Positions 10,379 through 14,248 of a DNA stretch of 64,000 bases are shown here, piece by piece. A program made the translations under genes and the position numbers. The notes beneath the pieces were generated by a model. That model was not told where the DNA came from and searched no databases. It was given only the letters and a program-made list of their open reading frames with translations. Location of the stretch: IMG/VR virus record IMGVR_UViG_3300044630_001234; one strand, written 5' to 3'. Numbering within the stretch: position 1 is the first letter of the stretch; every line of letters starts with the position of its first letter. The DNA is from a virus.

Positions 10379-10534
10379 TTACTTACGATTGATATGATTG
10401 GCGATTTGAGTAATATTAGACTTAGAACGGTTATTTTCACGTTTGAGCAAGTTAACCTGGTCGCGAAGAATCTTCATTTCTGCTAGCAACAGATTAATCT
10501 TCAATTCTAATTCTTTTACTTTTTTATCGTCCAT
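10379..10534 (-). CDS. small coiled-coil protein (~51 aa), not in the track
   Basis: MDDKKVKELELKINLLLAEMKILRDQVNLLKRENNRSKSNITQIANHINRK. The start abuts the stop of the acidic gene. Confidence 0.35.
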   Translation of the reverse strand: MDDKKVKELELKINLLLAEMKILRDQVNLLKRENNRSKSNITQIANHINRK

Positions 10535-10537
10535 ATA

Positions 10538-10780
10538 TCAATCCTCGTCTTCCTCGTCATCGTAGTATTTAATGTCGAGTTCATCGTCAAGAGTTGCTGC
10601 CAATATTCGAATCAATCGAACAACTTCCATCGAACTTAAACTTAGTGTTATACTGGTTGCATCTCCACGAAGGGTTAGGGTAGTTGCGCCAATGTTAGCA
10701 TCAAATCCTACACGATAGTAATCCTGTAGTTGGGATGACGGAATACCAGGGATTGGGGGGATTGGCGTTGTATCAGTCAT
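10538..10780 (-). CDS. small highly acidic protein (80 aa; C-terminus YYDDEEDED)
   Basis: Track ORF. pI strongly acidic, Pro-rich N-terminus and an acidic tail. Could be a DNA mimic or an SSB-tail-like interaction peptide. Confidence 0.5.
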   Translation of the reverse strand: MTDTTPIPPIPGIPSSQLQDYYRVGFDANIGATTLTLRGDATSITLSLSSMEVVRLIRILAATLDDELDIKYYDDEEDED

Positions 10781-10784
10781 AATT

Positions 10785-11315
10785 TTACCTAGGTCGAATT
10801 TTCATTTTAGTGTAGATGTTTTGTACACCCACGGCTTGACGAATAGCGTCCTGTAAGGCATCGTGCTTACTGCCCTGCGGCATGTCTGGATCAAAGCCCA
10901 AATCAAATAATGTACGTGTATCTCGCAATTGCCAATATTGCCAGGGAAGATTTTTACCTAGTTGGCGGTATAAGTTTTCAATAATGACTAAGTCAAAAGT
11001 TGCACCGTGCGACCAAAATGCATCACATCCCCATGCAAACTTATGGAACTGATCCATAGCATCCGCAAGTGGAATACGACCTTCTTCACTAAATGCTTCT
11101 TCCATAATGGCAGGATCCTGCTTGCCCCACCATTCCAATGTTCGGGGATCGATTTCACGGCCCAGTTTGTCTTGGTCATCGAGGTCAATTTTAAAATAGA
11201 TCTTGTCGCCATATCCATTTCCATAGGGATTGAAGTGTACTGCGCCTAAGCTCAGTACTACTGCACTTGGGGAGACTGCCATAGTCTCCATATCGATCAT
11301 TAGATGTTTTGCCAT
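10785..11315 (-). CDS. DEDDh-family 3'-5' exonuclease
   Basis: Exo I motif MIDMET (D/E), Exo II HGATFD and Exo III H-ALQDA in the canonical order. Confidence 0.65.
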   Translation of the reverse strand: MAKHLMIDMETMAVSPSAVVLSLGAVHFNPYGNGYGDKIYFKIDLDDQDKLGREIDPRTLEWWGKQDPAIMEEAFSEEGRIPLADAMDQFHKFAWGCDAFWSHGATFDLVIIENLYRQLGKNLPWQYWQLRDTRTLFDLGFDPDMPQGSKHDALQDAIRQAVGVQNIYTKMKIRPR

Positions 11316-11336
11316 GTGTTTATTATACTTTCTTTT

Positions 11337-11810
11337 TTAAGAAAAGTAAAGATGTTTAATACCTTCATATAAGGTATTCAATTCTTCTAGAGTTTCTATA
11401 TTATTCTTTAACGTGTTAGCACGTAGACTAATGACAACCATATTGGATACATCGCTACTATTACCTCCGCGGCTGCGAGCTACTATATGATCTACGCTAG
11501 GACGGAACCAATCATTGTTTTCGCCACTGACATTCCTAACTATAGTATTCTTACCTAAACCGTAGTCTAGGGGAGTATTAAAAATTGGACAACAATCGGG
11601 ACATTTTTTATAAAGTGCGTCTGCATCACATCCCCACTTTTGACTCATGCTAATGGCCCAAACCTTTTTTAGCATGTCCTGTTTTTCTTTACTTTTTAGA
11701 AACTCCATGTAAAGATCATTTCGTAGATACGTACTAGCATCAAAATGCCGCCAATACGTTCTACTGATTAAAGACTCGTCTACTCGGTCGATGTCTTGTT
11801 TCGGAATCAT
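11337..11810 (-). CDS. HNH endonuclease
   Basis: CPDCCP zinc knuckle, then VDHIVARSRGG and NMVVISLRANTLKNN (His-Asn-Asn core). Confidence 0.75.
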   Translation of the reverse strand: MIPKQDIDRVDESLISRTYWRHFDASTYLRNDLYMEFLKSKEKQDMLKKVWAISMSQKWGCDADALYKKCPDCCPIFNTPLDYGLGKNTIVRNVSGENNDWFRPSVDHIVARSRGGNSSDVSNMVVISLRANTLKNNIETLEELNTLYEGIKHLYFS

Positions 11811-13132
11811 ACAGATTCTTCTTCAGCTTCTTCCATGTCGTTTACATCGTAAACTTCGCCATTAGCTGTCATAAAAGGCATGCTAAGATAAAACTCATAG
11901 TCGTCGTCTGTTCGAGCAACTGGAGCAAGGCTAACACCAAGACCCCGTGGACTACCTGCTTGACTAGTAATATACAAGTCATAGTTCAAAACTGTACTAG
12001 CAATAGCCGCACCAATCATGTAACCGCGATTACCTGTATTAGTTTCTGCGGCATCCCGATACCTACTCAAAGGATATTGACCTTTAATTGATGCGTTGAC
12101 TTCTGGCCAAACTTGTTCTGGCTTATCCCAACGCTCACCGAGGGCTAATGCAATAGCTTGATCCATTTTACGAATCTTAGTCTTGTCAGTTTCGAGTTGA
12201 TTATTCAACAGTTTGCACAGGCCCCACAGTGGCTCATGTGGTACGCTCTTGGTAGGCCACGCATTACGCATAATACGAATACCACGTTTGAAAATCTCTT
12301 CATCAAATTCTTCAAAGTAATCTAAGAACTTTGCAGTATGTTTTGATTCACCGTCACTAGGAGTCTTGCCACGTGGGGGGATAAGAGTTACGTGTTCACG
12401 ATTTAACAATTGATGTAGATCATAATGCACTTGGTCTTCGTGTTTGATACTGCCGACTTCTGTATTCATGCGTATAGCACGATTAAGTTGGTTGCGATGA
12501 TTATCGTAGATGTCTGCAATCATTGCACTAATATTACAAGCAATGAATTGATTAAAGTCGTGATACTCTTGATCGCTTTCGATATATTGTGCAGGAATCT
12601 TTTCAACACCTACCAATGCTAACAGGATAGAACCATGCTGTCCGTCGTTGATGTAGATCTCTGCAGATGAAGTTTTGCGGCCTTTGCCACCAAACACTAG
12701 ACTCGAATCAAAATCAACTAACAGGTTAAACAAGTGGACAACGTTAATATTACGTTGGGCACGATAGTTAAGCGCAATGTCTTCCTGTGAATGTGTTTCC
12801 AATCCTTTAACAGCCTTGGCGATATCAAATAACGGCAACTCCCAACCCCATAATGCAGGCTTGAGTGTTGCGGGATCAATACTCTTTTTAAGATGCTCTA
12901 GTACCAGACGTACTGCGTCAGTAAACTTAACCAGGCCACGATCGTGTGTAGCAATTACACCATCTGTAACTTTTTTAATACATTTACGAATATTACGTAC
13001 TTCTGCATCAGTAGCCTGCGACAGTGGGCGACGATTGGCTCGCGGCCCTAGAATACTATCAAGGTCATCACCGTAGATGTCTTTGATTTCTTCATTGTAC
13101 CAGCGTACTGGTGTTTTCGATTTAGTTGCCAT
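11807..13132 (-). CDS. 441-aa protein with a DGQH motif (possible ParB/Srx-fold, DGQHR/DUF262-like); function unknown
   Basis: EIYINDGQHGSILLAL resembles the DGQHR/DGQQR motif, but the Arg is replaced by Gly. The 4-nt ATGA overlap with the HNH gene implies co-translation. The domain call is tentative. Confidence 0.4.
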   Translation of the reverse strand: MATKSKTPVRWYNEEIKDIYGDDLDSILGPRANRRPLSQATDAEVRNIRKCIKKVTDGVIATHDRGLVKFTDAVRLVLEHLKKSIDPATLKPALWGWELPLFDIAKAVKGLETHSQEDIALNYRAQRNINVVHLFNLLVDFDSSLVFGGKGRKTSSAEIYINDGQHGSILLALVGVEKIPAQYIESDQEYHDFNQFIACNISAMIADIYDNHRNQLNRAIRMNTEVGSIKHEDQVHYDLHQLLNREHVTLIPPRGKTPSDGESKHTAKFLDYFEEFDEEIFKRGIRIMRNAWPTKSVPHEPLWGLCKLLNNQLETDKTKIRKMDQAIALALGERWDKPEQVWPEVNASIKGQYPLSRYRDAAETNTGNRGYMIGAAIASTVLNYDLYITSQAGSPRGLGVSLAPVARTDDDYEFYLSMPFMTANGEVYDVNDMEEAEEESV

Positions 13133-13201
13133 TTGAACCTCTGTTTCTGTGTTAATATGTGTTTATTATAGCACGAGTTTGCACTATTGTCAAGCGTTGG
13201 T

Positions 13202-14248
13202 TTAACCAAAATCAAATAAGTTTTCAAATTCGGTATCTGCTTGTTCCATAAGTCCGTAGTCAGTAGCTTCGTGTACTTCACGTGGAACAAATAACCTATC
13301 CATATATTTTGGTATTTGCAGATGAGTCATTCCAATATTCTTACCAAAAAATAATCCAAACTGTTTCTTGTTAAGTGGCTTGCGGACTGCACATACACAA
13401 ACATAATCTCGCTGGGCAAAGAAGTCATACAATGCTTGTGGATCATACCCGTACTGCTTACATTGTTTTGGAACAATTTCTACCTGTACACTTGGGCGGC
13501 ATCGATCAATAGTGTCCTTAGCACCTTCAATTACAAATAATTCACTGCCTTCAACATCAATCTTAATAGCATCAACATCTTCAAAGTTATAACTGTCAAT
13601 AGTTCTTGCAGGAACTTTTACAATAAATTCTTCTTTCTTAACCTGAGTAGTCTCGTAGACTGCAAAGTTATGGCCACCATGTTCTGGATGATCCTGTATT
13701 CCAATAGTTCCGGTATTCCTATTAGTTAGTGCAACCTCATGAACAGTTATTTGTCCATGGATGTTCATTGACTGCGGTATACCTTTCCAATAGAACCAGC
13801 TGTCATTAACAGTATCATCTCTATGGATTGATCCTGCAATATCAGTGCCTGACCAATAGATACCTTTTAAATTACTAAGTTTGGCAATTTCAATATTTGC
13901 CTTAAGCATAGTAAGAGTAGTAGGAGTAGGCTCAAAACTTTCTACATACTGTGCCCATTCTCCATAGGCAATTGTGTTGTTGCCTACATTAGCACCTACA
14001 TCAATAATGCGGCGGGCCTGTGGATAAATGGTTCTAATAAGTCTACTATTGTTACCTTGGTAGTAAACATTGTTTCCTGAGAAACGGGGTCCTTGTAAAT
14101 TGTCAATTGATAAAAGCCAATAGCATCTACCAAACTTGTTTATTACTAGGCGGAATTGTGAGTTTTCATATAACCCACTTGGTTCAACAAATCCGAACAG
14201 TTGTTCAAATTCTTGAGAGGTGATGACTGCTGTAATTTTCTGCGGCAT
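13202..14248 (-). CDS. FkbM-family SAM-dependent methyltransferase
   Basis: DVGANVGNNTIAYGE (SAM-binding G-loop) and IKIDVEGSELFVIEGA, the two FkbM signature blocks. Confidence 0.7.
   Translation of the reverse strand: MPQKITAVITSQEFEQLFGFVEPSGLYENSQFRLVINKFGRCYWLLSIDNLQGPRFSGNNVYYQGNNSRLIRTIYPQARRIIDVGANVGNNTIAYGEWAQYVESFEPTPTTLTMLKANIEIAKLSNLKGIYWSGTDIAGSIHRDDTVNDSWFYWKGIPQSMNIHGQITVHEVALTNRNTGTIGIQDHPEHGGHNFAVYETTQVKKEEFIVKVPARTIDSYNFEDVDAIKIDVEGSELFVIEGAKDTIDRCRPSVQVEIVPKQCKQYGYDPQALYDFFAQRDYVCVCAVRKPLNKKQFGLFFGKNIGMTHLQIPKYMDRLFVPREVHEATDYGLMEQADTEFENLFDFG

Follow-up and report, generated by a model that had tools for sequence, protein, structure and literature searches.

Organisation of the locus

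The window analysed here is a stretch of 64,000 nucleotides of viral DNA (IMG/VR record IMGVR_UViG_3300044630_001234), and this report concerns two adjacent genes within it, which encode a 441-residue protein with a ParB/sulfiredoxin (ParB/Srx) fold and a 157-residue HNH nuclease. Both lie in a segment (10379-14248) that an earlier note, made from the sequence alone, had described as one cluster of five co-oriented genes. All five are present on the minus strand, together with a sixth open reading frame (ORF) of 51 residues that had been left unnamed, and the six ORFs share the same orientation:

13202-14248, minus strand: FkbM methyltransferase, 348 residues (PF05050, TIGR01444), a neighbour of the pair and a backbone gene
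11807-13132, minus strand: 441-residue ParB/Srx-fold DGQH(R)-domain protein, core of the pair
11337-11810, minus strand: 157-residue HNH (beta-beta-alpha-metal) nuclease partner, core of the pair
10785-11315, minus strand: 176-residue DexA-type DEDDh 3'-5' exonuclease (PF16473), loosely linked
10538-10780, minus strand: 80-residue ORFan with an acidic C-terminal tail, in a variable slot outside the unit
10379-10534, minus strand: 51-residue basic coiled-coil ORF with a weak ZapB-like match, outside the unit

The window is an accessory-gene-rich part of a large uncultivated phage, so that genes adjoining each other there are not necessarily linked in function. When promoters, synonymous distances and the borders of DNA similarity are considered, a single five-gene cluster is not borne out. 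The conserved unit is the 441-residue and 157-residue pair, a translationally coupled two-gene operon with its own promoter, and the supposed five-gene system reduces to this one module and unrelated neighbours. The comparisons below involve about 30 related loci (cited by L numbers) from at least six clades, in which the identity of the ParB-like protein goes down to 25-27%. These relatives are metagenomic contigs, the longest of 355 kb, and no nucleotide match to the window was found by blastn in 50,697 phage records.

The ParB-fold protein

The N-terminal domain of the 441-residue protein has the three-dimensional ParB/sulfiredoxin fold, and not an unrelated one, and contains in order the motifs QR (126-127), KGR (150-152), NDGQHG (162-167) and FxxxN (196-200). 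The INDGQHGS stretch to which attention had been drawn corresponds to residues 161-168. N-D-G-x-(H/Q)-G is invariant across 22 relatives, the QR pair is also invariant, F196-x3-N200 is present and conserved, and the pentapeptide DGQHG matches four of the five residues of DGQHR. However, the arginine of the P-motif (Box II, GERR / DGQHR) is missing: the pentapeptide reads DGQHG or DGNHG in the window clade (G167 is invariant across 22 sequences), and the residue is Gly, Ser or Thr in this clade and in its 500-residue sister clade, whereas distant clades retain the canonical NDGQHR. Mutation of this arginine (R-to-A) abolishes nucleoside triphosphate (NTP) binding in the ParB-CTPase-fold proteins that were tested (PNAS 2025). 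Because it is replaced, canonical NTP binding appears doubtful in the window clade, judging from the sequence; the invariant KGR upstream of DGQHG might compensate for the missing arginine. The DGQHR/DndB/DUF262-type fold proposed in the earlier note therefore holds for the ParB/Srx fold and the motif triad, but not for the final arginine (here Gly) nor for any DndB or DUF262 profile match.

The 441-residue protein had no match in Pfam, PHROGs, PADLOC or NCBIfam, and sequence and profile searches of the PDB gave nothing meaningful. At E <= 1, PF14072 matched neither the window protein nor a single one of 60 family members. The window protein itself has no match to DUF6551 (PF20188) either; 10 of 60 distant members do match it (best E 1.8e-9), and the window clade aligns with these members at 99.6% probability (E 1e-23, about 200 columns; hhalign profile-profile alignment). 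By such profile comparison the protein ranks as a remote homologue of DUF6551 at the superfamily level, short of Pfam-threshold membership.

Close homologues number 62 and fall into two clades (67-93% and 33-39% identity), and an exhaustive profile search recovered only 71 cluster representatives of the family among 1.84 billion. No bacterial or archaeal relative was found in the 185,579 species genomes scanned. In cultured phages, the sole protein match (tblastn, 50,697 phage records) is with the Sinorhizobium jumbo phage Phosso (24% identity over 36%), whose homologue is a truncated remote relative followed by an unrelated gene and lacking an HNH partner; two distant family members of about 400 residues had no match in the phage records. 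This rarity makes the family invisible to current annotation.

The C-terminus of the protein is a conserved acidic tail, which ends in ...MEEAEEESV in the window and in ...DEFENAE in the 500-residue clade. It resembles the partner-binding acidic tails of single-stranded DNA-binding proteins.

The HNH partner

The 157-residue protein has the HNH beta-beta-alpha-metal fold with its catalytic His and Asn residues. D107-H108, N123 and N132 are invariant, and this D-H-N-N catalytic set is kept across all clades. The match to PF01844 is weak (14.8 bits for a cutoff of 21.4, E 0.032), that to PHROG endonuclease VII reaches 1.9e-5, and tblastn found no match in the 50,697 phage records. A profile search of the PDB with the HNH family returned chance bromodomain matches and the HNH domain of Cas9 (E 1.4), which were not retained.

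Two further observations concern HNH genes of the related loci. (i) In L011 (2732-3233) the HNH partner is split into ORFs of 71 and 115 residues, which could reflect a frameshift, pseudogenisation or faulty assembly; L010 has a ParB-like gene identical to that of L011, then an intact partner of 163 residues. (ii) A separate canonical HNH endonuclease of 170 residues (PF01844/HNH_5) is encoded in L003 (2368-2880), L010 (2479-2991) and L001 (12425-12937); in two clades its gene lies immediately upstream of that of the methyltransferase, in a third it is found at another place. Unlike the partnered 157-residue protein, this enzyme appears to come from an ordinary gene of the free-standing HNH kind.

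Linkage, co-divergence and exchange of the pair

The stop codon of the 441-residue gene and the start codon of the HNH gene overlap by four nucleotides (ATGA), as had been noticed earlier. The proposed check of co-occurrence in relatives came out positive, since a homologue of the 157-residue protein directly follows the ParB-like gene in every related locus whose contig extends far enough, the junction being nearly always overlapping or abutting. The two proteins also diverge together: over 190 pairwise comparisons (20 non-identical trios) their identities are correlated with r = 0.98, whereas the methyltransferase correlates with the genes of the pair at only 0.72-0.75 in the same comparisons. 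Indeed, methyltransferase identity never drops below 66% (66-99%) across loci where that of the ParB-like protein drops to 28%, and in L018 and L019 the other shared genes are about 80% identical to those of the window whereas the pair is only 38-39% identical.

Fast evolution of the pair was considered for this last pattern (38% identity in backbones about 80% identical) and dropped, since ratios of nonsynonymous to synonymous substitutions (dN/dS) of 0.02-0.12 indicated purifying selection. Over the ParB-like, HNH and methyltransferase genes together dN/dS is 0.01-0.12, which speaks against runaway positive selection. Old alleles of a cassette, swapped by recombination, account better for the pattern. 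Synonymous distances (dS) between the window and L015 are 2.4 for the methyltransferase and 0.76 for the ParB-like gene, and those between the window and L005 are reversed (0.75 and 1.6, respectively); this discordance shows that the pair has been exchanged between phage backbones, as a cassette, by recombination. DNA similarity of the window to six distant loci ends at the methyltransferase stop codon, that to L015 ends at the HNH stop, and that to L005 is broken exactly across the 80-residue gene. In L007, L008 and L009 the pair occurs in a different context from which the methyltransferase is absent. No empty site was found among the related loci, each of which carries the pair at the same position.

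In the clade without methyltransferase, a 77-residue DUF6552 protein follows the pair (L007 8065-8298, also L008 and L009). DUF6551 and DUF6552 bear consecutive Pfam numbers, and both definitions may go back to shared gene neighbourhoods. L003 has a 77-residue ORF after the ligase gene.

Promoters

Perfect sigma-70 promoter sites and weaker promoter-like sites were located as follows:

13165-13193, minus strand: perfect promoter TTGACA-17-TATAAT with TG before the -10 box (extended -10), in the 69-nucleotide gap between the methyltransferase stop and the 441-residue gene start
2705-2733, 10313-10341, 21026-21054 and 30413-30441, minus strand: the four other perfect TTGACA-N17-TATAAT sites of the window
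14296-14325, minus strand: promoter-like site of the methyltransferase gene (11/12)
11322-11350, minus strand: promoter-like site of the exonuclease gene (10/12)

The first site is followed by an AGAGG ribosome-binding site in front of the 441-residue gene. The five perfect sites all lie on the minus (coding) strand, for 0.04 expected by chance, and the phage thus appears to use host sigma-70 consensus promoters throughout the region. Most of the related loci checked have an 11/12 or 12/12 site with the same 17-nucleotide spacer upstream of the ParB-like homologue, a few have only a 10/12 site, and one short contig has none. The pair is thus probably an independent unit transcribed by host RNA polymerase, and so probably expressed early.

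Genes neighbouring the pair

The S-adenosylmethionine methyltransferase pointed out upstream of the pair is confirmed as an FkbM protein (PF05050, E 3.6e-19, 70 bits for a cutoff of 22.7; TIGR01444, 71 bits) with the SAM-binding motif IDVGANVGNNT. However, it is a strongly conserved backbone gene with its own promoter-like site and a history discordant with that of the pair. The FkbM family is associated with O-methylation of small molecules or sugars, not of DNA. With respect to this locus, a paper on bS21-encoding phages has nothing beyond the mention of a highly transcribed FkbM-domain gene, which belongs to a different phage group (PMC9723584).

The 176-residue exonuclease matches PF16473 over its full length (E 6.9e-38), and its DEDDh residues (D8, E10, D108, H151 and D156) are readable in the sequence. 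It has homologues in 1069 phage records (tblastn), many of them annotated dexA, and matches the PDB entry 8kel ("exodeoxyribonuclease", 227 residues). It belongs to the same DEDDh family as exonuclease A (DexA) of phage T4, from which it differs in size (176 versus 227 residues), and is 24-37% identical to its cultured-phage homologues. It is an ordinary enzyme of the T4 DexA type and not a proofreading subunit, although the earlier note had called it proofreading-type. It follows the pair only in L005, L006 and L033 (close relatives, 93% identity) and in L025, L026, L028 and L029 (a distant clade, 40%); in other loci an epimerase or a DNA ligase gene takes its place. This recurrent adjacency is suggestive but not obligatory. 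In T4, DexA contributes to host-DNA scavenging and has a role in homing (PMC12153337).

The 80-residue protein, described earlier as highly acidic and DNA-mimic-like, does have the ...YYDDEEDED tail and an isoelectric point of 4.05, but only the tail is acidic: 11 of its 16 acidic residues fall within the final 18 positions, whereas residues 1-62 are nearly neutral. Neither homology to mimics of the Ocr/ArdA type nor a spread of acidity along the protein is seen. It has no family match and none in the cultured-phage records, and its homologues are restricted to five clusters (86-99% identical) among 5.8 billion proteins, all from near-identical phages; the gene is absent from all more distant related loci. 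It constitutes a precise indel relative to L005, where the slot holds rubrerythrin and rubredoxin genes. Finally, the 51-residue coiled-coil ORF is conserved in close relatives.

Comparison with known systems

The coupling of a ParB fold with a His-Me nuclease is already known from bacterial defence (GmrSD, SspE, BrxU). GmrS has the QR / DGQ(Q/H)R / FxxxN triad, as in DGQHR domains, and its partner in the two-gene system is GmrD (PMC4619093). Like the genes of the window, GmrS and GmrD (two-gene type IV GmrSD of Escherichia coli CT596; DUF262 and DUF1524) are two separate co-evolving proteins that associate a ParB/Srx fold with a His-Me/HNH nuclease bearing D/E-H-N-N. The GmrSD-like architecture proposed in the earlier note is supported to this extent, by the folds, the D-H-N-N set and the strong co-divergence. 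However, the pair had no match to DUF262 (PF03235), DUF1524 (PF07510) or PADLOC profiles, its motif is DGQHG instead of DGQQR, its sizes and extra domains differ, and it is encoded by a phage under an early-type promoter whereas GmrSD is found in a bacterial defence island. The GmrS/GmrD architecture is thus paralleled, but the lack of profile matches and of the motif arginine keeps the pair outside the family. SspE, BrxU and Eco94GmrSD likewise couple a ParB-fold NTP-binding sensor to a His-Me nuclease, but they are fused proteins of bacterial defence that recognise modified DNA, whereas the pair is split and viral.

The 441-residue protein shares the ParB fold, QR, DGQH(R) and FxxxN with DndB and DpdB (DGQHR domain, PF14072, TIGR03187), but it has no match to their profiles and has lost the final arginine in its clade, and no dnd or dpd genes lie near the pair. 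Moreover, DndB is a regulator without a nuclease partner. Phage fusions containing DUF6551 bind CTP or ATP in vitro (PNAS 2025). Compared with DUF6551, the window protein is longer by about 110 residues at its N-terminus and about 100 at its C-terminus, has no P-motif arginine and is always accompanied by an HNH protein, whereas the DUF6551-like homologue of Phosso is partnerless.

The 157-residue protein resembles the free-standing HNH homing endonucleases of phages (T4 Mob family) by its small size and recombination-prone boundary. The earlier note had considered that it might be such an enzyme, but it shows neither sporadic presence nor independence from its neighbours: it is always paired and co-diverges with the ParB-fold gene, no presence/absence polymorphism was seen, and it shares a promoter and translational coupling with its partner. 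We consider the pair to be a real variant, not described before, of an architecture already known; it is so far restricted to uncultivated phages.

Proposed function and alternatives

We lean, with moderate confidence, towards the pair being a two-subunit endonuclease, produced early in infection and directed at the DNA of the host or of competitors. The 441-residue and 157-residue proteins would assemble into one enzyme, in which the ParB-fold subunit would ensure DNA binding and target discrimination and the HNH subunit would cut DNA. With glycine in place of the P-motif arginine in this clade, NTP control of the ParB-fold subunit would be altered or lost. A promoter of the host-type consensus implies that host RNA polymerase transcribes the pair as soon as infection begins. 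As substrate, DNA other than the replicating genome of the phage itself is most likely. This would be either the host chromosome, degraded to scavenge nucleotides with the help of the DexA-type exonuclease that some lineages encode downstream, or the DNA of a co-infecting rival phage. The pair would point to a nuclease on which large uncultivated phages rely from the outset of infection. A stable viral version in two genes, with an early promoter and with a clade devoid of the nucleotide-binding arginine, would also extend the functions attributed to the ParB-CTPase fold, currently under survey (PNAS 2025). A terminase-accessory role for the ParB and HNH proteins was set aside in view of the early-type promoter and the lack of packaging genes among those flanking the cluster (large ORFs past about 36 kb excluded).

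The exchange of the pair as a unit between backbones, seen in the discordant dS values of L015 and L005, could also be that of a selfish mobile cassette, in which a two-component homing-type endonuclease (HNH cutter, ParB-fold recognition) would cleave the locus of co-infecting relatives and spread by recombinational repair (marker exclusion), aided by the DexA-type exonuclease. The breaks in DNA similarity exactly at the borders of the pair, its presence in another context without methyltransferase in L007-9, the classic homing-endonuclease fold of the HNH protein and the documented role of DexA in T4 homing (PMC12153337) all agree with such behaviour. However, sporadic homing endonucleases leave empty sites, whereas the pair occupies the same position in every related locus, has co-diverged to identities as low as 25% while under purifying selection, and keeps an early-type promoter of its own that is conserved. 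This universal presence, the co-divergence and the promoter suggest a function useful to the phage, and we regard the selfish cassette as rather unlikely.

The preferred endonuclease can also be cast in a narrower form, to which we give a low probability. The pair would be a virus-encoded, split counterpart of GmrSD-type systems used offensively, with an early ParB-fold sensor free of canonical NTP gating (Arg to Gly) steering the HNH subunit to host or rival DNA of a given modification state. The phage DNA would be protected by an unseen modification, possibly through the adjacent, tightly conserved FkbM methyltransferase, and the deeply diverged alleles of the cassette would correspond to different target specificities.

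A non-nucleolytic role seems improbable. The ParB-fold protein would act, as DndB or KorB do, as a DNA-binding regulator or clamp that serves phage transcription, replication or genome organisation. The HNH protein would nick DNA or be a structural cofactor at one specific site of the phage, such as one where replication or recombination is initiated. Against this, the full D-H-N-N set is invariant in all clades, a repeat search found no parS-like repeated sites around the locus, and the divergence of the pair relative to the backbone (28% versus at least 66%) would be unusual for a core replication factor.

Finally, a five-gene system in which FkbM would modify DNA, the DGQH protein sense it, the HNH protein restrict, the exonuclease process and the acidic mini-protein act as mimic or inhibitor is very unlikely. 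In its favour, the genes adjoin each other in one orientation, most loci have the methyltransferase upstream of the pair, and the GmrSD-like architecture of the pair is real. Against it, the methyltransferase, pair and exonuclease have separate promoter-like sites, the methyltransferase has a discordant phylogeny, comes from a family not known for DNA methylation and is missing beside the pair in L007-9, the exonuclease is absent from most loci, and the 80-residue gene is a precise indel that only near-identical phages carry. In addition, the 64-kb window shows no genes for base modification, nor was any evidence of DNA modification found.

Other genes of the window

A gene upstream of the methyltransferase gene (14322-14558, minus strand) encodes ribosomal protein bS21 (PF01165, 1.8e-14) and overlaps the end of a full-length ClpX homologue (14545-15777, minus strand); both genes are conserved in the relatives L005 and L033. 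On the other side of the cluster, a 465-residue DUF2828/DUF7788 protein (8402-9799, minus strand; PHROG 850 "RNA-binding protein", E 1e-149) has a perfect promoter upstream and is 85% conserved in L005. The region 1873-8327 (minus strand) encodes two calcineurin-like metallophosphoesterases, an SPFH/Band 7 protein, a GT2 glycosyltransferase and a PstS-like phosphate-binding protein, which suggests phosphate acquisition and surface modification.

A permuted (two-piece) transfer-messenger RNA (tmRNA) lies at 19140-19444 on the minus strand (Rfam RF04321, 111 bits, E 7e-21); the ARAGORN call covers 19049-19475, with ANDSHFALAA as predicted tag peptide. Such permuted forms occur typically in alphaproteobacteria, in some betaproteobacteria and in cyanobacteria, and this one may give a hint to the host lineage. 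Auxiliary metabolic genes on the minus strand (19456-20140 and 22902-27399) encode IscA-like and IscU/NifU Fe-S assembly proteins, the small and large subunits of ribonucleotide reductase and a class II aldolase. Further along (36916-63893, minus strand), very large ORFs of 1122, 3051, 575, 1014, 1050 and 1975 residues follow each other in a row and presumably encode structural or fibre proteins.

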